A stretch of DNA of 64,000 nt. Origin: Candidatus Udaeobacter sp. (GTDB taxonomy: Bacteria > Verrucomicrobiota > Verrucomicrobiia > Chthoniobacterales > UBA10450). Below, in pieces: positions 2,593 to 62,846 of this stretch. Numbering within the stretch: the first letter of the stretch is position 1; each line of letters opens with the position of its first letter. Position numbers and translations under genes: made by a program. Below the pieces are notes generated by a model. That model did not search any database, was not told the DNA's origin, and worked only from the letters and a program-made list of their open reading frames with translations. The stretch spans positions 3,235-67,234 of the forward strand of contig DASREQ010000069.1 of the NCBI GenBank assembly GCA_035651975.1, read 5' to 3'.

Positions 2593-3858
2593 TCAGCAGC
2601 GTCCTAAACCAATGTCGCGCCGATAGTGGCAGTTCTCGAAATGAATGCGGACGACAGCTTCGTATGCGCGGGCGCGTGCGGCTTCGAGCGTTGATCCAAG
2701 CGCTGTGATCGCGAGAACGCGACCGCCAGCCGTCTTAAGTTCGCCGTTGGCGCGCTTGGTACCGGCGTGGAAAATCTGGACGTCTTCAAGCTTTGCCGCT
2801 TCGTCGAGACCCGAAATCGTTTTTCCGGTTTCGTATTTGCCAGGATAACCACCAGAGGCAAGCACGACCGTGACGGCAGCACGTGTATCCCACTCAATCG
2901 CACGCTTGCTGAGATTTCCATCAATTGTCGCTTCCAACAGCGGTGATAGATCGGATTTCATCCGGGGCAGGAGCACCTGTGTTTCGGGGTCCCCGAAACG
3001 GCAATTGAACTCCAGTACACGAGGGCCATCGTCCGTCATTATTAGCCCAGGATAAAGAAGTCCGCGAAATGTGATCCCCTCTTGCAAAAGACCGCGTAGG
3101 AGCGGTTGCATGATTTCCGCTTCGAATTGCGATTGCAGTTTCCTATTCCAATTGTCGGCAGGGCTGAGCGCGCCCATCCCGCCCGTGTTCGGCCCCTTAT
3201 CGCCGTCCAGCGCGCGCTTGTGATCGCGCGCCGATTCCAGCAGACGATAACTGCTTCCGTCCACCAGGGCGTGCAGCGAACATTCCGTCCCACGCAAGAA
3301 ATCCTCGATCACGATGCGCCGGCCTGCATCGCCAAAACGGGCCCGATTCATCATCTCATCGATTGCGGCTCTGGCCGCGGCAGTATCCGCGGCGATGACG
3401 ACTCCTTTTCCGAGAGCAAGGCCGTCCGCTTTGATCACGACCGGAAATTTCAATCGCTCGCAGTAACGCAGCGCTTCACTGCTGTTGGAAAACGTTCTCG
3501 CCTCGGCTGTAGGGATTTTCTGCGCGCGCATCAGTTCTTTTGCGAAAATTTTGGAGGCCTCGATGCGCGCCGCCGATTTCGTCGGCCCAAACGCACGCAA
3601 GTTTTCACCAGCAAAATAATCGATAATTCCTGCGGCAAGTGGGTCGTCCGGACCGATTACCGTCAGGTCGATACGGTTTTTTCTTGCGAAACGGGCGAGC
3701 GTCCCAAAATCACTGGCAGAAATCGCGACATTCTCGCCAACTTCGGCAGTGCCAGCGTTCCCCGGTGCGCAGAAGATACGCTCCACATCCGAAGATTGCT
3801 TCAGTTTCCACGCAAGCGCATGTTCGCGACCCCCGCTGCCAACGACCAGAATTTTCAT
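2593..3858 (-). CDS. purD: phosphoribosylamine--glycine ligase
   Basis: 421-aa ORF colinear with PurD: MKILVVGSGGREHALAWKL, an ATP-grasp core, GPNTGGMGA and EFNCRFGDPE. Confidence 0.95.
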   Translation of the reverse strand: MKILVVGSGGREHALAWKLKQSSDVERIFCAPGNAGTAEVGENVAISASDFGTLARFARKNRIDLTVIGPDDPLAAGIIDYFAGENLRAFGPTKSAARIEASKIFAKELMRAQKIPTAEARTFSNSSEALRYCERLKFPVVIKADGLALGKGVVIAADTAAARAAIDEMMNRARFGDAGRRIVIEDFLRGTECSLHALVDGSSYRLLESARDHKRALDGDKGPNTGGMGALSPADNWNRKLQSQFEAEIMQPLLRGLLQEGITFRGLLYPGLIMTDDGPRVLEFNCRFGDPETQVLLPRMKSDLSPLLEATIDGNLSKRAIEWDTRAAVTVVLASGGYPGKYETGKTISGLDEAAKLEDVQIFHAGTKRANGELKTAGGRVLAITALGSTLEAARARAYEAVVRIHFENCHYRRDIGLGRC

Positions 3859-4184
3859 GGCGAACTAGTTTGACTGTAGAGATAGCCGAGCCGGCTGCAA
3901 AGCCCTCAGCAACCCTTACGCCAACTCCCACTCCGCAGCGACAGCGAGTTCAACTCCAACCGTAACACCTGCGCCCAGACCTACGCCGACACCAAGGCCG
4001 CGCCCGTCCCCGCCGCCGCAGCCCACGCCGCCGCGCTGAGTCGGAGCGAGAAAGTGACAGTCATCGGCAAAGAACCGGCATTTAAAATCCTCGACAAAGG
4101 AGCAAAGTGGATGGCAGTGACAGTGCATTGCACCGTCACTGACTGTGTCTGCAGCCCAGATACTTTACGGCTTACGCTGCACCG

Positions 4185-5288
4185 TCACTTCGATGGCGAT
4201 TCGGCCGGTAAGATCGACAACTCTAATTTCTCGGTGTGCCGAATGACTGTGAGCCTGGCACTGACGCCAATTTGTTCGCCGACCAAAACTTTGTGCAAAT
4301 GATGAACACTCGCAATAGCCTCATCGTCGAAAGCAATAATCACATCTCCCTCGCGCAATCCAGCGCGCTCTGCGGGACTATTCTTGTCAACGGAAACAAC
4401 GAGGACAGCCGTCTCGAGAGGTAAACCATAAAATCGGACGATCCGCCGGTGAAGTGGAACGTTCTGCCCGGCCACGCCGATGTAACCGCGCCGGATGCGT
4501 CCGTCACGAATGAGCCATCCAGCAACCAATTTGGCCGTGTTGCTTGCGATTGCGAAACAGATGCCTTGCGCCGGTCGAATCATGGCCGTGTTTACGCCCA
4601 CCACTTCGCCGGCCGAATTAACCAATGGTCCGCCGGAGTTGCCCGGATTCAAGGCGGCGTCGGTTTGAATAATGTTGTCAATCAAGCGACCCGATTGGGC
4701 GTGCATTGAGCGACCGAGTGCGCTAATCACGCCGGCAGTGACGCTGGCTTGGAAACCGAGCGGATTTCCAATCGCGATTACGATTTGACCCACGCGCAAA
4801 TTTTCCGAGTCGGCCAGGCGCACATGAGTGAGTTGCGGCCCATCGATGCGAATCACGGCCAGATCGGTGTCTGGATCGTCGCCGGCCACTTGCGCCGGGT
4901 ATTCGCGCCCGTCGGGCAAATTTACGGTGATGGAATTCGCTGCATGGACGACGTGGCTATTAGTCAGAATGAATCCGTCGGGCGTGATGATGAAACCCGA
5001 CCCGTTGCCGCTCAACTCGCGTGTTCCGCGCTGGACGTTAATCCGTTGTTTAACGTCGATGTTCACAACGGCTGGCGAAACGCGCCTGACGGCACTCACG
5101 ACCGTACGCGAATATGCATCGAGCAAGCCGGCATCGTCCTGGTCTGCTGCAACTGTGTCGAGGTCCCTGTTCGCCTGTGATGGAGCAGAGTCCCTGTCGT
5201 TTAAGAGAAAATCCATCGGCACAGCGTTTCCCTTCGTAAGAGATGTAATTGTCATATCCAAATTTCGTACAGCCAAACCGTCAGTCAA
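4185..5288 (-). CDS. htrA: HtrA/DegP-family periplasmic serine endoprotease with one PDZ domain
   Basis: The trypsin-like triad context is present (TNSHVV, DLAVIRI, GNSGGPLV), followed by a PDZ-like C-terminus (GYIGVAGQ...GDVIIAFDD). The start could be a later Met. Confidence 0.9.
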   Translation of the reverse strand: MTDGLAVRNLDMTITSLTKGNAVPMDFLLNDRDSAPSQANRDLDTVAADQDDAGLLDAYSRTVVSAVRRVSPAVVNIDVKQRINVQRGTRELSGNGSGFIITPDGFILTNSHVVHAANSITVNLPDGREYPAQVAGDDPDTDLAVIRIDGPQLTHVRLADSENLRVGQIVIAIGNPLGFQASVTAGVISALGRSMHAQSGRLIDNIIQTDAALNPGNSGGPLVNSAGEVVGVNTAMIRPAQGICFAIASNTAKLVAGWLIRDGRIRRGYIGVAGQNVPLHRRIVRFYGLPLETAVLVVSVDKNSPAERAGLREGDVIIAFDDEAIASVHHLHKVLVGEQIGVSARLTVIRHTEKLELSILPAESPSK

Positions 5289-5833: not shown

Positions 5834-7417
5834 ATGCATCAGGCGGAAATTATCGTTCTTCTGTTCACGGTCGTCGCGGCGTCAGTTCTGATCGCGCGCA
5901 AGATGGCGGTGCCGTACCCGGTCGTGCTGGTGCTTGTCGGTCTGGTCTTGAGTTTCGTTCCGCATCTGCCGGAGGTGAAACTGGATCCAAACATTGTTTT
6001 CTATTTCTTTCTGCCACCATTGCTTTACCCAGCTGCGTTGTTCACTTCGTGGCGCGATTTTCGGCGAAATCTGCGGCCAATCGTCCTGCTTGCCATTGGC
6101 TTGGTGCTTTTCACAATTATCGTGGTCGCCTGCGTGGCGCACTCGTTAATTCCGTCCCTGCCGTGGGCAGCGGCTTTTGCCTTGGGCGCAATTGTTTCTC
6201 CGCCTGATGCGGTCGCGGCTACGAGTGTGATTCGCCGTCTGGCAGTGCCACACCGGATCGTTAGCATTCTGGAAGGTGAAAGTCTGTTGAACGACGCCAC
6301 GGCGCTGGTCGCGCTGCAGTTTGCAGTCGCAGCGCTAATGACAGGCAAATTTTCACTGGGCCAGGCATCTTTGCGTTTCGTCTGGGCCGCGGCGGGCGGA
6401 ATAGGATTTGGCTTGCTCGTCGGCGGGGTGATTCGATGGGTGCATCGACATCTCGACGATCCACCAGTGCAAATAACCATTTCGTTGCTCACGCCGTTTC
6501 TTGCGTATTTACCGGCGGAGCGCTTGCACGTCTCAGGCGTCCTGGCTGTGGTTGCCGCCGGAATTTATCTTGGCTGGCACTCTCCACTGATTGTGACGGC
6601 GCGTTATCGTTTGCAGGCGTTCGCTTTCTGGGAAATCGTGGTGTTCCTTCTGAACGGTTTTGTTTTCACGGCCATCGGTTTGCAATTGCCGGGAATCCTG
6701 CGATCGCTCAGGGGCGAGTCTCTTCTTTCGCCCATTGAGAATGCGCTTGTGGTGAGCGCTGCAGTTGTGCTGGTACGGATCGCGTGGGTTTTTCCGGGCG
6801 CGTATCTGCCTTTTCTCCTGTACAGGGGAGTGCGTCGGCGCGAGCCTGTCCCGGAGTGGCAAAATGTGGCGGTCATGGCCTGGTCGGGAATGCGCGGGGT
6901 CGTCTCCCTGGCGGCCGCATTTGCGCTTCCCTACGTTTTACCGGACGGCCGCACGTTCCCGGGAAGGAACTACATTTTGTTTCTGACCTTCTGTGTGATT
7001 TTGGTAACCCTGTTGTTTCAAGGCCTGACGCTACCGATTGTGATCCAAAAACTTTGCATCAAAGCCGATAATTCAACTGATGAAGAAGAGCGAGTCGCAC
7101 GGTTGGAAGCAAACCAGGCGGCGATTGAATCAATCGAAAAGCTTCGCGCCAGCGGCGAGTTTTCGCCCGATACTGTGGATCGTTTGCGTGCCGAGTACGA
7201 CGAACGCGTGGAGCAATTGCAACTTTGCGCCGACAACCCCGACGATTGCCGCGGCGAAATCGCCACGCCGCAATATCAACGTTTGCAACGCAAAGCGCTG
7301 CGTGTGGAAAGGCAAACCATCATCCGCCTGCGAAACGATCGCGTGATCAACGACGATGCGTTGCGGCGGATTCAGCGCGACCTGGATCTTGCGGAAGCGC
7401 GTCTGACAGGAAGCTAA
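5834..7417 (+). CDS. Na+/H+ antiporter (CPA1/NhaP-like) with cytoplasmic C-terminal domain
   Basis: 527-aa polytopic membrane ORF (about 12 hydrophobic segments) with CPA1-like motifs: PPLLY.AAL, SPPDAVAA, EGESLLNDA and WSGMRGVVSLAAA. Confidence 0.85.
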   Translation: MHQAEIIVLLFTVVAASVLIARKMAVPYPVVLVLVGLVLSFVPHLPEVKLDPNIVFYFFLPPLLYPAALFTSWRDFRRNLRPIVLLAIGLVLFTIIVVACVAHSLIPSLPWAAAFALGAIVSPPDAVAATSVIRRLAVPHRIVSILEGESLLNDATALVALQFAVAALMTGKFSLGQASLRFVWAAAGGIGFGLLVGGVIRWVHRHLDDPPVQITISLLTPFLAYLPAERLHVSGVLAVVAAGIYLGWHSPLIVTARYRLQAFAFWEIVVFLLNGFVFTAIGLQLPGILRSLRGESLLSPIENALVVSAAVVLVRIAWVFPGAYLPFLLYRGVRRREPVPEWQNVAVMAWSGMRGVVSLAAAFALPYVLPDGRTFPGRNYILFLTFCVILVTLLFQGLTLPIVIQKLCIKADNSTDEEERVARLEANQAAIESIEKLRASGEFSPDTVDRLRAEYDERVEQLQLCADNPDDCRGEIATPQYQRLQRKALRVERQTIIRLRNDRVINDDALRRIQRDLDLAEARLTGS

Positions 7418-7546
7418 GAGTGTCAGTATTTAGTGATAAGTTTGTAAATGTCTGTTTAGCGCGAACGGCGCTGGTTGCCGCGGGCTTGTGCTGAATACTG
7501 CGCCTTGGACGCAAGGGACATACGGTTTTACAGAAACGTCTCTGAA

Positions 7547-8425
7547 CTAAAAACCATATCGTGCGGGCCAATCCCTGGCCGGCCCGCCGAGCCGCGCTGC
7601 GCAGTTCTTCAGTTCCTTCTTGAAGAACGTGGCCAGATGCGACCGTACCTTGTTTGTGAGCGGAAGCTTTTCCATCCTGGTCCAGCTGTTGTGATCCGCC
7701 GCCAATCGGCTGCCTGGCTTGTCTGGATCAGCACCCAGGAAACGAAGGATAGACTGCCGCAATTCAGCGGGATTGCTTTGCAGATCATCAAAGAAATAAA
7801 CACGAAACTGTTTCGCAGGGACATAGTGCTTCCATCGCGCAACCACGGCACTTGGGTACGAACGCAAAAGCATTCCCCGGCGGAGCAAATTCCGATTGAC
7901 TGCATCAATGTCGGTCACATCAAACGGCTCAATTTGGCGGTAACGCACTTCCATCGACAAGTGCGACCACACGCGCTCAACCGGATCGCGCGCCAGAAAG
8001 ATCACCTTTAGGTTTGGAAAGTATTCAACGATCTGGCGAATGATTTCATTACTTAGGGTCGAATAATTCGGGGAGATATCGCCTGAAAGAAGTGATGCCT
8101 TGGACTCGAACAACCGCCCGTAATTCTCGAGGTCGATACGCGGTTCAGCGCTGAGGCTCTTGAGCTTTTCCAGAAATCGAAGATCGCGCTCATCTCTGCA
8201 GCGCGGACGCGCTGCGCGCTGAACCCGGCTCAGTTGATCAAAGTAATGGAGCTCCTTCACAGGAGGCATCCAGAAATCGGGATGAGAATCGAGTTGCTGA
8301 TAAAGCCACGTGCTTCCGGCTTTGTGCGCTCCGATACACAAAAAATCCGGTCCTGCGCCGCGAGCAGGAAACGGCTTATGTCTGCTGGCACTACCGCGAG
8401 CGTTGAACGGGCAAGCCCATCTCAC
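7547..8425 (-). CDS. sulfotransferase family protein (paralog 1)
   Basis: PAPS 5'-phosphosulfate loop (PDFLCIGAHKAGSTWLYQQL), HPDFWMPPVKELHYFD and a 3'-PB-like FLARDPVERVWS motif. Confidence 0.75.
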   Translation of the reverse strand: MRWACPFNARGSASRHKPFPARGAGPDFLCIGAHKAGSTWLYQQLDSHPDFWMPPVKELHYFDQLSRVQRAARPRCRDERDLRFLEKLKSLSAEPRIDLENYGRLFESKASLLSGDISPNYSTLSNEIIRQIVEYFPNLKVIFLARDPVERVWSHLSMEVRYRQIEPFDVTDIDAVNRNLLRRGMLLRSYPSAVVARWKHYVPAKQFRVYFFDDLQSNPAELRQSILRFLGADPDKPGSRLAADHNSWTRMEKLPLTNKVRSHLATFFKKELKNCAARLGGPARDWPARYGF

Positions 8426-10296: not shown

Positions 10297-10749
10297 ATGG
10301 ATGTTAGCGGTACGATCGGCGCGATTCTGAGTCAGAAAAGCAAAGATATTTTTTCCATTCGATCCGACGCATTGGTTTTTGAAGCGATTGAAATGATGGA
10401 TGAAAAAAATGTCGGTGCGTTGTTGGTGATGGATGGAGATCGATTGAATGGGATCATTTCCGAGCGCGATTACACCCGCAAGGTTTTCCTCCGCGGCAAA
10501 CGTTCGCGGGAAACCAAGGTTTCCGAGATCATGTCAACCAATGTGACTGTTACGCATCCGCGCGAACCAGTAGAGAAATGTCTGCGGCTGATGACGGACA
10601 AGCACATTCGGCATCTGCCCGTGGTCGAAGGCGATCGGGTGGTGGGGGTGATCTCGATCGGTGACCTCGTTAAACACGTCATTTCCTGTCAGCAGGCCGC
10701 CATTGCACACCTGGAAAATTACATCCACGGCGGATACGTTGCGGGGTAG
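10297..10749 (+). CDS. CBS domain-containing protein (tandem CBS pair)
   Basis: 150 aa with two CBS repeats (VGALLVMDGDRLNGIISERD and IRHLPVVEGDRVVGVISIGDL). Confidence 0.85.
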   Translation: MDVSGTIGAILSQKSKDIFSIRSDALVFEAIEMMDEKNVGALLVMDGDRLNGIISERDYTRKVFLRGKRSRETKVSEIMSTNVTVTHPREPVEKCLRLMTDKHIRHLPVVEGDRVVGVISIGDLVKHVISCQQAAIAHLENYIHGGYVAG

Positions 10750-10753
10750 ATTT

Positions 10754-10812
10754 GCAGGCGTCTGTGTCAGACGCCCACCCAGTTAGATCGGCGTTTCGCA
10801 GAAACGCCCTAC
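10754..10812. repeat. REPIN-type double hairpin (copy A)
   Basis: GCAGGCGTCTG-tgt-CAGACGCC, then 14 nt, then GGCGTTTC-gca-GAAACGCCCTAC. It is nearly identical to the reverse complement of 45832-45890. Confidence 0.85.
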
Positions 10813-12125
10813 AGCTTCCAAACCGTCTTGCCGCCGACGATTGTTCGGACCGCTCGACCTTTCAGCTTCCAATCGTCGAAAGGCGAATTGCGAGAGGCCG
10901 ATTGAAATCGATCGATGTTAACAGTCCACTTCAGGCCCGGATCGATTAGCGTGACGTCGGCGCGGGTGCCAGGTGACAAAGTGCCCGCATCGAGCTTTAA
11001 CAAGCGCGCCGGCTCGATGGTGTACATCTCAATCAAACGCCCGATGTCGATGCTGGCGTGTTTATGCACGAGCAGATCGATAAAAAGACCGAGCTCGGTC
11101 TCCAATCCAATGATACCAAATGGCGCGACGTCGAACTCGACTTCCTTTTCGAAATCCGCGTGCGGCGCGTGATCGGAACACAAGATCGATACGGTCCCAT
11201 CGCTGATGCCCTCCAGCAATGCCTCGACATCTGTTTGCGAGCGCAGCGGCGGATTCATTTTGTAGTTCGTGTCGAAATTCTGGATCGCCTCGTCAGTTAA
11301 CGCGATGTGATGCGGACAAACCTCCCCGCTTATTTTTACACCGCGCTTTCGAGCTTCCCGAAGTAGCCGGACGCTGCCGGCTGCAGTGAGGTGTTGGCAA
11401 TGGATCGGGTGGTCGCAAAGTTCCGCGAGCAGAATATTGCGCATCACCATCGTTTCTTCGCCTGCAGCAGGCCAGCCGGGTAAACCCAGCAGCGTGCTCC
11501 AGTAGCCCTCGTGAATAACCCCATTGCCGACCAGATTGTAATCCTGACAATGATCGAGCACCGGCAAATCAACCATGCGAGCATACTCGACCGCGCGTCG
11601 CATCACCTCGTGGTTTTGAATGCAATGACCATCATCGGTGATCGCCACAACGCCTGCCTTCGCGAGAGATCCGATGGAGGCGAGCTCCTCACCCGCGAGG
11701 TCTTTTGAAATTGCGCCGGCTGGCAAAACATTCACACATGCCACTTCCGCCGCGCGATCTTTGATCCACGCAATCGTGCTGGGATTGTCCGAAGCTGGCG
11801 AAGTATTCGGCATGCAGACAACCGTGGTGAATCCACCCGCTGCTGCCGCGCGTGCGCCCGACTCAATTGTTTCCTTGTGACTGAATCCGGGCTCGCGCAG
11901 GTGGACATGCATGTCGATCAAACCCGGTGCAACGATCAAACCTTTCGCGTCAATCTCTTCGATTTCAGGTCGCCCGCGGCGGGTAAACTGCTCGCGGATT
12001 CCGGATTGAGCGGCAATCCTTCCCTCAACGATCAAAAGGTCGGCGATTTCGTCTCGCTTGTTTGCAGGATCGATCACGCGGCCGTGTCGAATGATGGTCG
12101 TGCTCACGCCGAGATCCCTCCGCAT
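10809..12125 (-). CDS. pyrC: dihydroorotase
   Basis: Motifs [10 protein letters not shown], ...DHAPH... and a TIM-barrel amidohydrolase layout. The ORF is open to 12257, but that part overlaps pyrB. Likely starts are ATG 12125 or GTG 12107, the latter in a GTGA overlap with the pyrB stop. Confidence 0.9.
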
Positions 12126-13033
12126 AGATAGAGGACAGCCATGCGAACAGCGAGGCCGTTGGTGACTTGATCGAGAATGACGCTGTGCAATCCATCGGCG
12201 ACCTCGCTGTCGATCTCGACTCCGCGGTTGATGGGACCGGGATGCATGATGAGACAATCTGGTTTTAGCAGTTTGGCGCGCTCTTTGGTGAGACCGAAGA
12301 ACCGAATGTATTCGCCGATTCCGGGAAAATATTCTCTACGCTGGCGTTCGTGCTGAATGCGCAAAAGATTTACCACATCGGCTTTGGGCAGTACCTCGTC
12401 GATCTTGTGGGAAATTTCGACCCCAAGTTTCGCAAATTCGCGGGGAACCAATGTGCTTGGGCCGACCAGCGTGACGCGTGCGCCGAGCTTGAGCAGACCA
12501 AAAATGTTCGAGCGCGCAACGCGACTAAACAAGATATCGCCGACGATCGCCACGTGCAGCCCGGCGATCTGCCCTCGCTTTTCGCGGATTGTGTAGAGGT
12601 CGAGCAATGCCTGAGTGGGATGCTCGTGCGCCCCGTCGCCGGCGTTGATCACGCTCGCTTTCAGCCGATTCGCCAGGAATTGTGGTGCGCCAGCCGAGCT
12701 GTGACGAAGCACGAGAATATCGGCATGCAATGCCTGCAGATTGCGCGCGGTGTCTTTGAGTGTTTCGCCTTTGGTCAGACTGGAAGTAATTGCTGAGAGA
12801 TTGATTACGTCTGCGCTCAGCCGAAGCGCGGCCAGCTCAAAAGAGGTGCGTGTCCGCGTGCTCGGCTCGACGAAAAAATTCACCAATGTTTTTCCGCGCA
12901 GCGACGGGACCTTCTTGATCTCGCGGGTACCGACCTGCTTGAATGCGTCGGCGGTTTCCAGAATAAAATTGATTTCGCCTGCCGAAAGTTCGCGCAGGCC
13001 TAACAGATCTTTTCGTATCCAGTGTGCGGTCAT
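12104..13033 (-). CDS. pyrB: aspartate carbamoyltransferase catalytic subunit
   Basis: Motifs [17 protein letters not shown] and HPGP. ATG 13033 ([13 protein letters not shown]) fits family N-termini and clears the pyrR stop at 13065. Confidence 0.93.
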
Positions 13034-41947: not shown

Positions 41948-42727
41948 TTAGTCGCGAATCAAAGGACGTAATTCATTGTCTGACAACAAACGATAACGAA
42001 TTGCCCTGCCCGCGTCACGCTCAAGCAATGCCGCCTCGATTGCAGCGCCTGCGAGTTGTTCCTGTCGATGTTTCCTTACTGCAGCGCGCTCTGGTGGTTC
42101 CTTTGTGTCGCTGGTTTGTAAAGTCATATGCCCGATGCTCCATGCATCGAGCGCGGAATTGAGTGCCGTCTCAAGGTTGGCATCCGCTGAGTGCTGAGTC
42201 GCGAGAAATACTTCCATCAGCTCTCTTGATTGCTCTGTCCCACTGAGCGCGGCGAAGTCCCGCCGCGCCTGCGCGTACGTGGCGCCGTTGCTGGCGATCT
42301 CACCATCGTATTCTACTCGTAAAAACAAATCCTCTTCGGGTTGTTCTCCGACCTCCGCGAAGAGCATCCGTGCCAGGTATGGTGGCCCATAAATCTGTTC
42401 AAATGCGGTCTTCATTGCCGGACTAAGCGAGTAATGCGCCAGGCGTCGCAACGAAACATCCGCCGCCGAACGGGTGAAGCCTTCCGTGCTGGCCAGCTCG
42501 ATCGCCGCCATTCGCAATCTTTCGATGTCCCCGGGATGACCGATCGCACCCATCGCAATCCGGTCGTAGATCTCAAAAATCTTCTGACGCGTCTGGCCCA
42601 GGGTGACAAACAAAATGCCGTCGCCATAACCGAGCGCTGCGATCGGGCTGCCCGGAGCGAGCTGCGCTTCGATGTACTCGCGCCGGTTAGCGATCGCTTC
42701 GACCCAACGATACGGCTCTTCAATCAT
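41948..42727 (-). CDS. prcA: 20S proteasome alpha subunit (PrcA-like)
   Basis: Colinear by eye with my recollection of actinobacterial PrcA (...EAIANRREYIEAQLA.GSPIAALGYGDGILFVT...KIFEIYDRIAMGAIG...LRVEYDGEI...), including the C-terminal tail. Its ATG overlaps the prcB stop (ATGA 42724-42727). Confidence 0.85.
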   Translation of the reverse strand: MIEEPYRWVEAIANRREYIEAQLAPGSPIAALGYGDGILFVTLGQTRQKIFEIYDRIAMGAIGHPGDIERLRMAAIELASTEGFTRSAADVSLRRLAHYSLSPAMKTAFEQIYGPPYLARMLFAEVGEQPEEDLFLRVEYDGEIASNGATYAQARRDFAALSGTEQSRELMEVFLATQHSADANLETALNSALDAWSIGHMTLQTSDTKEPPERAAVRKHRQEQLAGAAIEAALLERDAGRAIRYRLLSDNELRPLIRD

Positions 42728-43548
42728 GCAACCGTTTCCTTAAACACCGCCGCAATTTTGCTCTCCGGCAACGTGGTGATTCCTTCGCGCGATACAATCT
42801 TGATAAGCGGATAAATCTTCCCGCTGCGATCTACGCCGCCTGTCGATGTGTCCGATTCCGCAGCGGTATCCAATGCACGCAACGCGATTGATACTGCTTC
42901 GTCTTCGCCTAATTCCTGCAGCGGCTTGGCTCCCCAATTGTTTTCGTAATAAAGAATGCCCCGCACCGCCGGCGATCCGGACCCCGTCGCTGCGTAATCA
43001 GCCACTTCAAATTGTGCACCCATTGCGTCGTAAAAATAAAGCCGCGCCTCGGGCTTCGGATGAGAATCGTAGGTCGCGAAGATCGGCACCACGACTCCGA
43101 TGCCCTGCATGACGGACCCGAAGTTGTCGCGCAACAGCTTCGACAGAGCGCGCACTTTGCCGTCAACACTCATTTCCTGCAGTTGCGTTCGGCGAAAGTA
43201 TTGAAATGAGTGTTCGAGCACGCGCGCCATTTCCCACGCCGTTGCCGGCACACCGGCAATGGCCATGATCGAGTGTCGATCGATTTCCAAAACTTTGTCG
43301 GCGCGATCATACACAACTGTATTACCAGCGGTTGCGCGGCGGTCGCCTGCCACCAACACGCCGCCTGAAAATTTGAAAGCGAGAATGGTGGTTGCTTCCG
43401 TCGGTTGCCACGTCTTTTGAGGCGCTCCGCCTTGCGGCACGGGATTCGCAGTTGCCGGGGTCAGCAAGCCTTTGCGACGCAACAGCGCAGAGAAATCGCC
43501 CGCTGCGCCAGAGAAATTCTGGTCAAACGCAACCGGGAAGCGGTCCAT
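42724..43548 (-). CDS. prcB: 20S proteasome beta subunit (PrcB-like) with ~52-aa propeptide
   Basis: ...TEA|TTILAFKFSGGVLVAGDRRATAGN.V......KV.EID carries the Thr-1 nucleophile context. I chose ATG 43548, which overlaps the TAA of the upstream small ORF by 1 nt. The ORF is open to 43686. Confidence 0.88.
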   Translation of the reverse strand: MDRFPVAFDQNFSGAAGDFSALLRRKGLLTPATANPVPQGGAPQKTWQPTEATTILAFKFSGGVLVAGDRRATAGNTVVYDRADKVLEIDRHSIMAIAGVPATAWEMARVLEHSFQYFRRTQLQEMSVDGKVRALSKLLRDNFGSVMQGIGVVVPIFATYDSHPKPEARLYFYDAMGAQFEVADYAATGSGSPAVRGILYYENNWGAKPLQELGEDEAVSIALRALDTAAESDTSTGGVDRSGKIYPLIKIVSREGITTLPESKIAAVFKETVA

Positions 43549-43724
43549 TATTCGCCGGTGCGCTGGCGATAGCGCTTGGATTGATTGGGATCCACCCTGC
43601 GCATTTTTTTTAAGAGATCCTTCGTGTCCGGCCGCGAAATGTCGGGTGAACGTGGACCTCCACCATCGCCTTGTTTTGGATCCCATGGAGCCGGTTCTGC
43701 GGGCTTCTGAATGCGCTCAGGCAT
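43548..43724 (-). CDS. ubact: UBact, Pup-like prokaryotic ubiquitin-like modifier
   Basis: 58-aa disordered peptide MPERIQKPAEPAPWDPKQGDGGGPRSPDISRPDTKDLLKKMRRVDPNQSKRYRQRTGE. The C-terminal ...RYRQRTGE and its position directly upstream of prcBA match the UBact description as I recall it. An alternative ATG lies at 43757. Confidence 0.7.
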   Translation of the reverse strand: MPERIQKPAEPAPWDPKQGDGGGPRSPDISRPDTKDLLKKMRRVDPNQSKRYRQRTGE

Positions 43725-43895: not shown

Positions 43896-44375
43896 ATGAA
43901 GCTCGCATTGATTTTTTGTGTGACACTGCTTTTCGGGTCGCTTTGCACTGCGTCTGCGCAGACGGATGCGCCAAAGTCTCGCAAATCAGATGATGCTACT
44001 CAACTTGAAGCGCTGGCCAAAAAGATAGACGAACAGAATGCCAAGATTGACGCGCTTTCGCAGGAGATCCTCAAGCTGGAACAACAAATCGCACACATGC
44101 GACCGGGCGTAATGATTGGAGAAAGCACGCCCTCGGCAGCCAGTCCGGCCGCAGCCGCCGGGGCCGCGTCTTCACCACGTCCGGCTGGCGCAAATACGCA
44201 CATCGTCGCACGCGGTGAGACGCTCACTTCCATCGCCAAAATGTACAAGGTTACCGTGGACGAATTGCAAAATGCCAATCATATCGAAGATGGCCGCAAG
44301 CTGCAGGCCGGACAGACCATCATTATTCCGGCCGCGTCGCCGGCGGCTTCCAGTTCGCCATCCCCAACAGAATAG
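43896..44375 (+). CDS. LysM domain-containing protein
   Basis: Signal peptide, a coiled-coil, an Ala/Ser/Pro linker and LysM (HIVARGETLTSIAKMYKVTVDELQNANHIEDGRKLQAGQTIIIP). Confidence 0.8.
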   Translation: MKLALIFCVTLLFGSLCTASAQTDAPKSRKSDDATQLEALAKKIDEQNAKIDALSQEILKLEQQIAHMRPGVMIGESTPSAASPAAAAGAASSPRPAGANTHIVARGETLTSIAKMYKVTVDELQNANHIEDGRKLQAGQTIIIPAASPAASSSPSPTE

Positions 44376-44380
44376 GGCTC

Positions 44381-44929
44381 GTGAATCAAAGTTGGTTTCT
44401 GCGCAAACACGAAGATGGAAGCACCTTTGGCCCGGTGCGTTTTGATCAAATCGCGCGCTGGGCAGCAGCGGCGCAAATCGCCCCGCACGATATGCTTTCC
44501 AACGACCGGCAGACCTGGGTGAAAGCGCCGATGCTGCCCCAGCTCGGTATGGACTGGTTGGTGGAGCTCACCAGCGAGCATTATTACGGACCAACAACTT
44601 TGGGCGCCCTCCAGGAATTTATTCGGCTGGGCGAAATCGACGGTGAAACTCTTGTTATCAACACCCGCAACGGCGCGCGTTCCAAGATTCAGGAAATGCC
44701 ACAGTTGTGGGAGACGGGACAAGCGGACGCCGCAGATGCCCAGACCGAAATTCAACTGGGCGATCCTGTTGGACCGACAGTGGCGAGAATGTCGATTCGT
44801 CTCCAAGAGCAGATTCGTGATCTCGAGCAGAGCTTGGAAGAAGAGCGCCGCGCCCTGATGGAAGCCGAGCGACGATACGCTGAGCTAAAACAACAATACG
44901 AAGCGGCCATTCAGCGGGCTGGAATGTAA
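44381..44929 (+). CDS. GYF_2 (DUF4339)-like repeat protein with C-terminal coiled-coil
   Basis: Two W...(D/E)G...GP......(L/I)......G.I copies (WFLRKHEDGSTFGPVRFDQIARW and HYYGPTTLGALQEFIRLGEIDGETLV). GTG start. Confidence 0.55.
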   Translation: MNQSWFLRKHEDGSTFGPVRFDQIARWAAAAQIAPHDMLSNDRQTWVKAPMLPQLGMDWLVELTSEHYYGPTTLGALQEFIRLGEIDGETLVINTRNGARSKIQEMPQLWETGQADAADAQTEIQLGDPVGPTVARMSIRLQEQIRDLEQSLEEERRALMEAERRYAELKQQYEAAIQRAGM

Positions 44930-44991: not shown

Positions 44992-46887
44992 TCAGCAGAT
45001 TGGCAATTGTTCCTCTGCTTCGGGCGTCTGGGCGGCGGGAAGCTGTGCGGGCGACTCTGTTTCCCGTGGCGGCGAAGTTTCGAGCAAACTTTGCCGGCAT
45101 AGCCGCGCATATTTTCCGTCGAGCGCCAGCAATTCGTCGTGTGTGCCGCGCTCGATAATCCGGCCATGATCGAGTACCAGAATTTGGGTCGCATGCACAA
45201 TCGTGGAAAGCCGGTGCGCGATGACAATCGATGTGCGGTTTGCCATCAGGCGCTCCAGCGCTTCCTGGATCAAACGCTCGGTCGCAGTATCGACACTTGC
45301 TGTTGCTTCATCGAGAATCAAAACTGGTGGATCTTTCAACAGCGCTCGGGCAATAGAGAGGCGTTGTTTTTCGCCTACGCTCAATTTCACTCCTCGCTCG
45401 CCCACCACGCTTTCCAACCCGTCTGGTAAGCGTTGGATAAAATGCTGCGCGTTTGCTGCGACCACCGCGCGCCATAATTCGGCGTCGGCCGCTCGCGGTT
45501 TTCCCATAAGAAGGTTTTCGCGGATCGATCCGTTGAACAAAAAACTTTCCTGCGTCACCACACCGATCGCCTCGCGCAATGCGCGCAGGTCATATTCGCG
45601 AATCGGTTTCCCGTCGATGTAGATTTGTCCACTGGTGAATTCATAGAAACGCACGAGCAGATTCACCAGTGTCGACTTACCCGCGCCGGTTGCGCCCACC
45701 AGCGCCACGGTCGCGCCTGGCGGTGCGTGAAAGCAAACATTCCTTAGCGCGGGCAATCCGTCCACGTAGCTGAAGCTGACGTCCTGATAGCGAATATCTC
45801 CCACGATGTGTGTGCTTTGGGCGGAAACCTTGTAGGGCGTTTCTGTGAAACGCCGAACCACAGCCCTGGCGTCTGACACAGACGCCCTACAATTGTCGTC
45901 CGACAGATATTTCTGTTGATCGCGACAACCCGGCTCGACGGGTTCATCGAGAATTTCAAATACGCGCTCGCCTGCCGCGCGCCCGGCCTGCACGAGTTGA
46001 TTGAGCTGATGTAACCGGCTCAGGGGATCGTAGAGAAACGCGATTAGCATTAAAAACGCGACCAGATCGCCGATCTGCATCGAACCGCTCAGGACCGCGC
46101 GACTGCCAAACCCCAGTACCAGTAGAGCGCCAATCGATTCAACCAGCGACATCGACGGGCTGTAAATCGCCCATACGCGCATCACCACGAGTGTGGCTCG
46201 TCTTAATTGGTCGCTTACCCTGTCAAACCGCGTGTGCTCTTCGTTCTCACGTGCAAAACTTTTGATCTGCCGGACGCCGGCCAGATTGTCGTGTAGCAGC
46301 GCGTTCATGTCTGAGGAGGCCCGGCGCTGCAAACGATACCGCCGATGGGCAGTCAGCGTGTACGTGAGCGTGCCGGCGACAAGTAACGGGAAGGGCACGA
46401 GCGCGAGCAACGCCAGCTTCGCGTCCAGATAAAACATCATGCCTATGACGATGAGTACCTGCAGAATGGCGACGACGCCCTGCTCGATTCCGTCAATCAA
46501 TACACGCTCGACCGAGTTGACGTCCTCAATCACGCGCGTCATCAGGTCGCCGGTGGCGCGGTTATCGAACCACCGCAGCGGCAGCAACTGGATGTGCGAA
46601 TACAAATCGCTGCGCAAATCGAAAATCACTTTTTGCTCAAACGTGTTGTTCAACACAATGCGCAGCGCATTGAACCCGTGCTGGAGAAGAAATGCGATCG
46701 CGGCAAGCGCGATTAGCGGCAGCAATTTGTCCGGACGATGTGCGCGTACGACGTCGTTGATGATCCATTTCGTGGTCGCGGGGAAAACAATCACCATCAG
46801 CGTGCTCAGGATGGCACACGTCAATGTCCCGGCGGCCATCCAAGGATACCGCTTCAAGTAAGCAAAAACGCGCCAAACGGTTTTCAT
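44992..46887 (-). CDS. ABC transporter, fused permease/ATP-binding protein (MsbA-like type I exporter)
   Basis: Six-TM domain, Walker A GATGAGKST, signature LSVGEKQR, Walker B ILILDEATS and H-loop IAHRL. It carries a REPIN-derived in-frame insertion between the TMD and NBD. Confidence 0.92.
   Translation of the reverse strand: MKTVWRVFAYLKRYPWMAAGTLTCAILSTLMVIVFPATTKWIINDVVRAHRPDKLLPLIALAAIAFLLQHGFNALRIVLNNTFEQKVIFDLRSDLYSHIQLLPLRWFDNRATGDLMTRVIEDVNSVERVLIDGIEQGVVAILQVLIVIGMMFYLDAKLALLALVPFPLLVAGTLTYTLTAHRRYRLQRRASSDMNALLHDNLAGVRQIKSFARENEEHTRFDRVSDQLRRATLVVMRVWAIYSPSMSLVESIGALLVLGFGSRAVLSGSMQIGDLVAFLMLIAFLYDPLSRLHQLNQLVQAGRAAGERVFEILDEPVEPGCRDQQKYLSDDNCRASVSDARAVVRRFTETPYKVSAQSTHIVGDIRYQDVSFSYVDGLPALRNVCFHAPPGATVALVGATGAGKSTLVNLLVRFYEFTSGQIYIDGKPIREYDLRALREAIGVVTQESFLFNGSIRENLLMGKPRAADAELWRAVVAANAQHFIQRLPDGLESVVGERGVKLSVGEKQRLSIARALLKDPPVLILDEATASVDTATERLIQEALERLMANRTSIVIAHRLSTIVHATQILVLDHGRIIERGTHDELLALDGKYARLCRQSLLETSPPRETESPAQLPAAQTPEAEEQLPIC
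45832..45890. repeat. REPIN-type double hairpin (copy B) inside the ABC exporter CDS
   Basis: GTAGGGCGTTTC-tgt-GAAACGCC, then 13 nt, then GGCGTCTG-aca-CAGACGCCCTAC. GTAG heads occur on both strands. Confidence 0.88.
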
Positions 46888-53887: not shown

Positions 53888-54001
53888 ACTGTGGTGGCAG
53901 GCGTGTCGCCTGCAACATTCGAAAGGCCTGGTCCTCTACAGTTTTGATTGGAGAATCCAGGAATTGCCGCTGATGACAGCGGCCACTACACTGCACGCGT
54001 T

Positions 54002-61465: not shown

Positions 61466-61482
61466 CAGGCACCTCATAGATG

Positions 61483-61510
61483 GTAGGGACGGACCCCTGG
61501 GCCGTCCGTT
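61483..61510 (+). repeat. REP unit (GTAGGG + hairpin) between convergent genes
   Basis: GTAG-GGACGG-acccctggg-CCGTCC. A second hairpin, TGGCAGT-cgcgc-ACTGCCA, follows 17 nt downstream at 61527-61545. Confidence 0.6.
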
Positions 61511-61569: not shown

Positions 61570-62739
61570 TCACTTCCGTTCGGCCACGATTAGATTGGCT
61601 TCCTTGTAGTTCCAGCGATAACCGAATCCGAAGTCGAGCGGCGGCGGATTGCCTTGCCTGAAGAGTTCCTGAAGCCTGGGCTGATAATGTTGCTTGAAGA
61701 TATCGAGGGGGCCGACGTAAACGCCAAAAAGACGCAGGCTCCATTTGTTTGGATCGAAATACGCCAGGGGAATTCCAGAGTCGTCCTGCACGATGCGGGT
61801 ACTATGTTCGAGGATGAAATTGCGGATCGTGGCGAAACCCTGCTCAAACATCAGATACGAGGAAGACTTCAGGAAACTCGATCCCATCCCAAGTCGTTGA
61901 CAAAATTTCAAGAAACCGGGCGCGGACTTGATGCCGCCATCGGAAATATCCGTGGTGAAATAATACAAGGTTTGTGCATTGCCCGATTGATTGTCGGTAT
62001 AACGAATTCGCACTCCGGGAGTGCTGCCGCCTTTCTTTCCCGGCGCGGACTCTTCAAATGCGCCGTTGCTGTTGAGCGAGCCAAACGTCACATTTGTTAT
62101 CGACTTGTCGGCGCGTGCGATAAAGACGTAAAGAATCGGCAACACGCCGTTGAGGTTCTGTTGTTGCAGATCGACCTTCATGTCCTTCGTAATGAAGTAG
62201 GTGGTGTTCAGCGACGACCTCATTGCGTTTTCCAGATTTCCCAGCGCACCCGGGAGATTTGCGATGCGCAATGGATCGGGCGGCGGTCCCATCGACTCCT
62301 TCCCGCAAAGCACGTACACCGAGGCGTTGGGGAAAAATTGATCGACGTACAAGAAATCCGGGCCGCTGAACATATAAAATGCAACAGGCGTCGGCTGCAT
62401 TACCTCCGGAAGATTTGTGGCTTCCCACGCATGCAACTTTTGGAGCTGACGCTGGTAAAGCTTGGTGAACTCGCCCTCGAAAAAAGCGGCATGGGCTTGC
62501 CACGCCGGATCGCGTGTGAGTGGCGCGAGCGGAGAATTCTCCGGAACCGGCATCCCGGCAAGGAACCGCGCGATGTCATTAGGGCCTGCCGCGGCCGGGG
62601 CTGCTGGCGTGACGGGAATCGCGCGAGGCACAACCTCCGGATTTTGCTGCGCGTGAGCGCTCACGATGGCTTCGACCGCAAACGCGATGCTAACCAATAA
62701 CATCCGGTGTGCCAGATGGCGGTGCGAAACTCGGAACAT
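61570..62739 (-). CDS. conserved hypothetical secreted protein
   Basis: ATG 62739 gives a clean signal peptide (MFRVSHRHLAHRMLLVSIAFAVEAIVSAHA). The remaining 389 aa have coding-like composition (YMFSGPDFLY, SSSYLMFEQGF, QDDSGIP). Family not recognised. Confidence 0.55.
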   Translation of the reverse strand: MFRVSHRHLAHRMLLVSIAFAVEAIVSAHAQQNPEVVPRAIPVTPAAPAAAGPNDIARFLAGMPVPENSPLAPLTRDPAWQAHAAFFEGEFTKLYQRQLQKLHAWEATNLPEVMQPTPVAFYMFSGPDFLYVDQFFPNASVYVLCGKESMGPPPDPLRIANLPGALGNLENAMRSSLNTTYFITKDMKVDLQQQNLNGVLPILYVFIARADKSITNVTFGSLNSNGAFEESAPGKKGGSTPGVRIRYTDNQSGNAQTLYYFTTDISDGGIKSAPGFLKFCQRLGMGSSFLKSSSYLMFEQGFATIRNFILEHSTRIVQDDSGIPLAYFDPNKWSLRLFGVYVGPLDIFKQHYQPRLQELFRQGNPPPLDFGFGYRWNYKEANLIVAERK

Positions 62740-62846
62740 AGGCATTTTGCCTGTGCGCCCAGCGGGGTTCAAGCCTGCTGCTCCATCTGGAGCGGGCAAC
62801 ATGCCTGCTGGGCGCACGGGCCGCAGGCTGATGTTCCGATCCTTTT

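Follow-up and report, generated by a model that had tools for sequence, protein, structure and literature searches.

Here we describe a palindromic DNA element of 63 nt that lies in frame inside an ATP-binding cassette (ABC) exporter gene of Candidatus Udaeobacter (Verrucomicrobiota), in a 64-kb stretch of contig DASREQ010000069.1 (hereafter, the window). The element is a REPIN, that is, a doublet of two inverted repetitive extragenic palindromic (REP) sequences, here of the GTAG-tagged type. We consider it very probable that it goes back to an ancient in-frame insertion, presumably mobilised by a REP-associated tyrosine transposase (RAYT), and that it is translated within an unstructured linker of an exporter that stays functional. 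Across orthologs this linker is a multi-family hot spot, that holds palindromes of at least four dispersed GTAG families, and two more palindromes besides. An earlier note made from the letters of this DNA alone (hereafter, the original prediction) had pointed to one REPIN in the linker; the linker holds several palindrome families beyond that one.

Structure and reading frame of the element

The element occupies positions 45830–45892 on the minus strand (TTGTAGGGCG...CGCCCTACAA) and consists, in mRNA sense, of a 5′ REP arm (TTGTAGGGCGTCTGTGTCAGACGCC; 45868–45892) with the GTAG tag and an 8-bp hairpin, a poorly conserved spacer of 13 nt (AGGGCUGUGGUUC; 45855–45867), and a 3′ REP arm (GGCGTTTCACAGAAACGCCCTACAA; 45830–45854) with an 8-bp hairpin followed by CTAC; the minus-strand sense of the whole reads TTGTAGGGCGTCTGTGTCAGACGCC-AGGGCTGTGGTTC-GGCGTTTCACAGAAACGCCCTACAA. 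The two 25-nt arms, which a repeat finder scored as 84% complementary and 13 nt apart, each also fold into a separate hairpin, in which 3 nt loop out above a stem of 8 bp (GGCGTCTG-TGT-CAGACGCC and GGCGTTTC-ACA-GAAACGCC), and the predicted mRNA-sense fold of the element reaches −44 kcal/mol (z = −5.3), a stability that none of 200 shuffled sequences attained. GTAG stands at 45832–45835 on the plus strand and at 45887–45890 on the minus strand, and is kept in most of the 82 listed doublets of the same family; the interval of 45832–45890 originally predicted runs exactly from the GTAG to the CTAC of the double hairpin. Read in frame, the element gives CRASVSDARAVVRRFTETPYK, which forms exporter residues 333–353.

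In common with GTAG-type REPs, each half is a short imperfect palindrome with a stem-loop, carries GTAG at the end of the hairpin and has many dispersed copies; the location of the exporter copy inside an open reading frame (ORF) departs from the extragenic position that otherwise characterizes the type. The arms, at 6–9% divergence, flank a 13-nt spacer at 42%, as is usual for REPINs, and in-frame insertion into a functional gene is shared with Rickettsia palindromic elements (RPEs). A scan for promoters and terminators returned nothing at the element and no terminator-like site, and a permissive Rfam scan of positions 45500–46200 yielded a chance microRNA-like match only (E = 0.43).

On the basis of its ORF, Pfam domains, motifs and ratio of non-synonymous to synonymous substitution rates (dN/dS), the surrounding gene (44992–46887, minus strand) is an intact gene for an ABCB-type half-transporter of 631 amino acids (aa). 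The protein has the N-terminal six-helix ABC_membrane domain and the C-terminal ABC_tran domain of such transporters (type IV fold): the transmembrane domain (TMD; Pfam PF00664, E = 5.7e-46) spans residues 22–288 (46024–46824, minus strand) and the core of the nucleotide-binding domain (NBD; PF00005, E = 3.8e-33) residues 381–530 (45298–45747, minus strand). Walker A (residue 398), the Q-loop (444), the signature LSVGEKQ (502), Walker B (524) and the H-loop (556) are all present, which bears out the originally predicted open frame with intact ABC motifs. The dN/dS values of 0.053–0.080 against 12 orthologs (Nei–Gojobori), with carriers and non-carriers of the element alike, show a functional gene under strong purifying selection, and the protein is 100% identical to one from an NCBI Candidatus Udaeobacter metagenome-assembled genome (MAG). 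Its top solved relatives in the Protein Data Bank (PDB) are ABCB1/ABCB19, Sav1866 and TM288. The label ‘MsbA-like’ is not supported, as the score of 448.9 bits stays below the cut-off of 602 of the MsbA equivalog model TIGR02203 (PRK11176, 358.3 versus 867), and ‘essential-type’ is likewise unsupported.

The linker between the two domains (residues 316–362; 45802–45942, minus strand) is the sole indel-rich segment of the gene and comprises 47 codons, given that FEILDE stands at residues 310–315 and GDIRY begins at residue 363; this agrees with the original count of approximately 46 residues between ILDEP and GDIRY. Alignments of PDB chains to the exporter NBD start at residues 358–362.

A dispersed repeat family and a recurrently occupied linker

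The element of the window belongs to a dispersed GTAG-REP/REPIN family (hereafter, family a). Its 23-mer arm recurs in the window at 10790–10812, with zero occurrences expected by chance, as part of a second REPIN of the same architecture (10752–10814) that is intergenic, between convergent genes. This second copy fills the gap between a CBS-domain gene (10297–10749, plus strand) and a convergent amidohydrolase gene (10809–12257, minus strand), the stop codon of which is the TAG inside GTAG of the REPIN. When a single genome of each GTDB species was searched with a degenerate pattern of the arm (GTAGGGCGTYTSTGYSARACGCC), at least 120 stretches matched the 23-mer, compared with less than one chance match estimated from information content; among those listed, nearly all are from MAGs of Candidatus Udaeobacter, Chthoniobacterales, ‘Spartobacteria’ and other Verrucomicrobiota. 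The 82 doublets with near-identical arms in the DNA examined typically pair one TCTG..CAGA arm with one TTTC..GAAA arm, and have spacers of 0–32 nt that are unrelated in sequence.

Most of the other family a copies (128 elements in REP-centred loci) lie outside long ORFs, and a stop-free frame of at least 60 codons on both sides was found for at most 25 of them (two elements being counted on both strands). In three other genes, Pfam domains flank the element on both sides: it lies in frame inside a gene for a FAD-oxidase/Fer4/CCG protein (locus L154, 6926–6948) and inside a PMT_2 glycosyltransferase gene (L132, 6650–6672), and in a gene that combines Ser/Thr kinase and FGE-sulfatase domains the translation ‘CRASVPDA...’ follows the kinase domain (L164, 6033–6089). 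A further element forms a C-terminal extension of HolA (L121, 2681–2703).

Comparison with orthologs indicates that the extra stretch in the exporter linker is a true insertion. The 119 nearest homolog clusters (83–92% identity, 602–653 aa) differ in length in the linker, and in 85 of the 88 orthologs for which DNA was assembled (80 metagenome loci and 8 further contigs) there is no internal indel outside it over approximately 530 aligned codons. Ortholog linkers range from 16 to 69 codons; synteny is conserved on the contigs with listed gene calls (ABC, GYF-like, LysM, UBact and proteasome genes), and short-linker orthologs in this conserved synteny have 16–19 codons and no element. The linkers of 16–17 codons (for example, PIEPDWIEGKISARIA), which are found in 13 of the 88 orthologs, contain no palindrome (z of approximately −0.2) and match the family-wide norm, because the median linker in the wider family (50%-identity representatives) is 19, with a 5–95% range of 17–41 (in a count that takes in one additional residue), and because the alignment of a short-linker ortholog with the solved structures of MsbA (8gk7) and ABCB19 (8wp0) crosses the linker uninterrupted. 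The exporter linker in the window is thus unusually long, as originally predicted (47 residues versus 16–19 in short-linker orthologs and a family median of about 19). In one carrier (L201), the linker can be read as PVEPGFVTDVD, then CRASVSDANLQVRRLTQTPYK, then SAHAVRIL, that is, as the form of 19 codons with exactly 21 codons of the REPIN added.

The palindromes at this site, always in frame, fall into groups a to f, of which a to d are GTAG-tagged. Family a occupies the linker in the window and in L001, L003, L201–L204 and L208 (9 of the 119 protein clusters). Family b (GTAGCCGSGATC..GATCSCGGCTAC, translated ‘..ITDRGYS’ or ‘..INDPGYS’) is found as singlets in 20-codon forms and as doublets in 27-codon forms; family c (GTAGGGGAAGCTGACAGCTTCCCCTAC, ‘SFPYR’) as both singlets and doublets; and family d (GTAGCGCAG...CTGCGCTAC) as a large palindrome in L030. 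As well as family a, families b, c and d have copies outside the exporter gene in the DNA examined (16, 4 and 1, respectively); the same DNA contained no convincing further copy of e or f. Palindrome e (−96.6 kcal/mol) is not GTAG-tagged and lies in the 67-codon linker of L205 (gene at 3001–4956), where it is translated ..EERIEVRGFS..PSPYPLPLKRRGE...; palindrome f is another inverted repeat, in L207. The protein P0039 apparently carries the L205-type palindrome minus its right arm, which was deleted in frame. On our reading of their sequences, linkers of 19 and 28 codons look like decayed b elements.

RAYT candidates were sought by tblastn with Escherichia coli YafM, a probe used for candidate finding only, after which candidates were checked with Pfam; the probe matched REP-centred loci. 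Locus L088 (JBJMXD010000008.1, a Chthoniobacterales MAG, 6987–7668) encodes an intact Y1_Tnp RAYT of 153 aa (30.8 bits versus a cut-off of 23), bracketed by two b-type REPINs of approximately 100 nt (GTAGCCGGGATC...GATCCCGGCTAC). This family differs from that of the window, and it is the GTAGCCGGGATC family that most Udaeobacter lineages carry, in frame, in the linker of the exporter. In L120 (PLCM01000008.1, the Spartobacteria MAG palsa_1414, 6357–6957), a RAYT-like ORF with the HUH motif MPDHLHLL lies directly between two window-type REPINs, the upstream one of which has arms identical to those of the window element. A third RAYT (L130; 22.8 bits, just below the 23-bit cut-off) is flanked by yet another GTAG-REP family. 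With an intact RAYT between b-type REPINs in L088 and candidate RAYTs beside GTAG REPs in L120 and L130, this lineage appears to have REPIN–RAYT systems, L120 holding the candidate partner of family a.

Elsewhere in the window there are single GTAG-tagged REP hairpins of two other families (61482–61507 and 53964–53992), one of them GGTAGGGACGGACCCCTGGGCCGTCC and the other GTAGTGGCCGCTGTCATCAGCGGCAA (minus strand), the latter from a family that is represented 12 times in the orthologous loci. The window also contains an inverted repeat (62731–62839; 109 nt) that is imperfect, with 49-nt arms that are 71% complementary and 11 nt apart. The neighbours of the exporter gene are a proteasome subunit gene (42724–43686, minus strand) and genes for a LysM protein (43896–44375, plus strand) and a GYF-like protein (44381–44929, plus strand); given that the UBact gene adjoins the proteasome genes on orthologous contigs, the exporter sits beside a UBact–proteasome cluster.

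Age of the insertion and competing explanations

All family a alleles of the exporter have a homologous upstream segment (GW[RH]..K[YH][LF]S..D) and a homologous 13-nt spacer, and this spacer matches none of the other genomic copies, so the alleles derive from one insertion; independent insertions in three clades were rejected on the same grounds. With a synonymous divergence (dS) of 1.1–1.3 between carrier clades, and with flanks and spacer 37–42% diverged (eight carriers, three clades), the insertion is ancient. It is not strain-specific, one of the two outcomes that the original prediction had set out for an ortholog alignment, but common to lineages with dS of approximately 1.1–1.3, with homologous flanks and spacer.

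We propose that the element, a member of the GTAG REP doublet family that is dispersed through Chthoniobacterales/Udaeobacter genomes, was presumably mobilised by a RAYT (IS200-like Y1) transposase, which we infer for the source genome, and that it was inserted long ago into the DNA for the linker that joins transmembrane helix 6 to the first β-strand of the NBD. Because the length of the insert is a multiple of three, and because its reading frame is one of the two in which the TAG of GTAG is not a codon, it would have added approximately 21 residues, translated in a linker that exceeds the canonical length by approximately 30 residues, and the exporter stays functional. The insert is probably exposed on the protein surface. 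The linker may have become a hot spot as one of the few intragenic places where insertions survive selection, and an existing GTAG/CTAC hairpin could possibly draw further REP insertions. Given the dispersed family, the syntenic orthologs with short linkers and the purifying selection on the gene, the core of the original prediction, a selfish palindrome that landed in frame in a linker able to tolerate it, as RPEs do in other genes, stands.

Several observations weigh against this account. The YafM probe detected no RAYT in the 64-kb window or at the orthologous loci L001–L080, and the RAYT-like ORF between the window-type REPINs of L120 is apparently frameshifted (17.3 bits in Pfam, below the cut-off of 23), with its C-terminal part (KWEYLRQNPVRAGLV) in another frame; either a REP of the kind that belongs to this gene may have interrupted it, or the assembly may be in error. 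The apparent frameshift, near 6690–6720, coincides with the REP-like sequence TGCAGGCCGTCGGTGCCAGACGGC. Translation and surface exposure of the insert are our inferences, and the AlphaFold2 model (56-sequence ortholog alignment; mean predicted local distance difference test (pLDDT) 40.8, predicted template modelling score (pTM) 0.23) is too poor to be used except for its lack of secondary structure at residues 314–360. Linker alleles are scattered and incongruent with the gene tree: in a bootstrapped neighbour-joining tree of the codon alignment, family a carriers fall into three separate clades, in which b, c, e, f and short alleles are found as well. One vertically inherited insertion would consequently require many losses or replacements, or unseen short-tract recombination, and ancient polymorphism, exchange of short tracts, or losses and replacements that occurred repeatedly might each account for the scatter. 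A recent long recombination tract was rejected, as carriers from different clades resemble each other no more in the 300 nt that flank the linker on each side than in distal parts of the gene, a comparison the reach of which does not extend down to short tracts.

A further objection comes from the arms themselves, which are approximately six times more conserved than synonymous sites, whereas a neutral, tolerated insert should decay. Among the eight carriers, mean pairwise divergence is 5.7% in the 5′ arm and 9.3% in the 3′ arm, compared with 41.7% in the spacer, 37–38% in the rest of the linker and 35.4% at third codon positions in the rest of the gene. Within the arms there is no codon periodicity (6.0% at third positions and 7.6% at first and second positions), which places the constraint on the nucleotides rather than on the peptide. 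Stem pairing is kept in 97% of cells overall and in 98% in the 5′ arm. Covariation was considered as proof of structure and set aside, as there is too little variation: 16 of 22 stem pairs are invariant, and there is one compensatory event (C–G to G–C in the 3′ arm of L201/L203). Structure is inseparable from sequence conservation here, since those 16 pairs never vary. The conservation is not absolute, given that several protein variants carry arm substitutions and that an in-frame deletion of 15 nt takes half of one arm in L003.

Of the processes that could keep the arms uniform, we would give some, but clearly less than even, credence to concerted evolution, in which gene-conversion patches or RAYT-driven excision and re-insertion at GTAG/CTAC renew the arms while spacer and flanks drift. 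A large genomic pool of near-identical arms is available for this; the arm variants seen in the exporter, TTTC..GAAA and TTTG..CAAA, are both common in the family; and the scatter of linker alleles over the gene tree would be accommodated. Of the 13 spacer positions, only one differs between L202 and L201, which belong to different clades and are 46% divergent at four-fold sites; this near-identity hints at short-tract exchange or constraint. The homology of the spacer, however, excludes replacement of the whole element, so that only patches of approximately 25 nt fit; the 300-nt flanks show no recombination tract; and no RAYT was found in the DNA examined from carrier lineages. Alternatively, the hairpin may have been co-opted, that is, a DNA or mRNA structure at the TMD/NBD boundary may be kept by selection, and the REPIN might function there in a ribosome pause during membrane-domain insertion or as a binding site for RAYT, gyrase or similar proteins. 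We regard this as improbable. The contrast of the arms with spacer, linker and third positions, the missing codon periodicity and the retained pairing with one compensatory pair would all be expected, as would the presence of some palindrome at the site in most lineages and the absence, among the 119 close homolog clusters, of a family a-type allele with unrecognizable arms. Yet the unstructured 16–17-codon linkers in 13 of 88 orthologs, together with the decayed-looking 19- and 28-codon forms, imply that the hairpin is dispensable, L003 lacks half of one arm, and covariation is minimal. Intergenic copies across species are equally uniform, so conservation may be a property of the family, and carriers are recognized by their arms, which introduces an ascertainment bias, although no allele with family a flanks and lost arms was seen.

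A bolder version, which we hold to be unlikely, is that REPINs have long used the linker as a landing pad, in which GTAG-REP families replace one another in frame and arms are kept by nucleotide-level selection over dS > 1. If this were true, a REPIN inside a gene would have a function, as DNA or mRNA, where two domains meet (it might make translation pause, for example, or be bound by a RAYT or a topoisomerase) and would not be a tolerated passenger. At the other extreme, the element might not be mobile at all: the inverted repeat could have evolved locally or arisen by chance, it could be an artefact of assembly, or it could mark the gene as a pseudogene. The low copy number in the window (two per 64 kb) would agree with this reading, to which we nevertheless assign next to no probability: the 23-mer pattern has at least 120 taxonomically coherent matches with fewer than one expected, the same allele is present in the independent metagenome assemblies L001, L003, L201–L204 and L208, and the frame is open, with motifs intact and dN/dS of approximately 0.07.

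Relation to known palindromic elements

An orthologous and datable intragenic REPIN reveals the fate of such an element in a gene that needs its function (that is, the frame is kept and in-frame deletions occur), and arm conservation beyond that of synonymous sites offers a natural experiment that sets site-specific selection against family-level maintenance of REPINs. The linker between transmembrane helix 6 and the NBD of ABCB exporters can evidently accommodate 30–50 extra residues. For annotation, CRASVSDA/FTETPYK, ITDRGYS and SFPYR in Verrucomicrobial proteins should be read as translated REPs rather than as domains. Candidatus Udaeobacter is among the most abundant soil bacteria and has been described as genome-streamlined, a picture on which active REP families inside its genes would bear. 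A search of the available paper library returned nothing that mentions Udaeobacter together with palindromic repeats.

The Rickettsia precedent invoked in the original prediction holds as regards in-frame insertion of a palindrome, although a closer one exists. RPEs (Ogata et al. 2000, as reviewed in PMC10969869) are described as mobile palindromic repeats that lie in frame in unrelated genes without destroying them, at positions thought to be compatible with the protein fold, which is also what we propose for the exporter. They differ in that they measure approximately 100–150 bp and occur in Alphaproteobacteria (Rickettsia), whereas the exporter element is 63 nt long, GTAG-tagged and found in Verrucomicrobiota; we call the two unrelated in sequence on the basis of size, tag and taxon. 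We know of no link between RPEs and RAYTs.

REPIN–RAYT systems (Bertels and Rainey 2011, PLoS Genet 7:e1002132, PMC3116915; bioRxiv 10.1101/2021.07.10.451892) have the same two inverted REPs around a short, less conserved spacer, and their long-term vertical persistence also has a counterpart here, whereas RAYT genes with a flanking cognate REPIN have candidate counterparts in L120 and L088. REPINs have, however, been found to be almost wholly extragenic, and RAYTs to be flanked by their own REPINs (PMC3116915), whereas the exporter copy is intragenic and presumably translated, is 63 nt long rather than the typical approximately 100 bp, and comes from a genome of which the 64-kb window holds two copies of the element and no detected RAYT.

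The closest precedent is in the survey of GTAG- and CGTC-tagged REPs by Di Nocera, De Gregorio and Rocco (2013, BMC Genomics 14:522; PMC3733652), in which intragenic REPs were reported from several species, the GTAG cases being most numerous in the verrucomicrobium Opitutus terrae. Over half of the intragenic inserts in that survey are dimers that encode 20–30 residues, and two Xanthomonas species were noted to carry different REPs at nearly the same position in recB (PMC3733652). The O. terrae REPs resemble the Udaeobacter element in that GTAG is followed by a hairpin with a 6–9-bp stem, in that inverted dimers lie in frame in known genes, and in belonging to the phylum Verrucomicrobia. There is also a likeness between the peptides encoded by GTAG-17 of O. 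terrae (VAGVGDPG...) and those of b-type linkers (..VVAGIGDRG..). The O. terrae REPs differ from the Udaeobacter element in genus and in stem sequence. Compared with that survey, a single site is followed here across approximately 90 orthologs and at least four dispersed REP families, and allele age and the divergence of arms and spacer are measured. Translated GTAG-type repeats in Verrucomicrobia have thus been known since 2013; what is new is that a single site inside a gene is documented as a hot spot for several families, and that the conservation of the arms is measured at a locus that is orthologous and can be dated.

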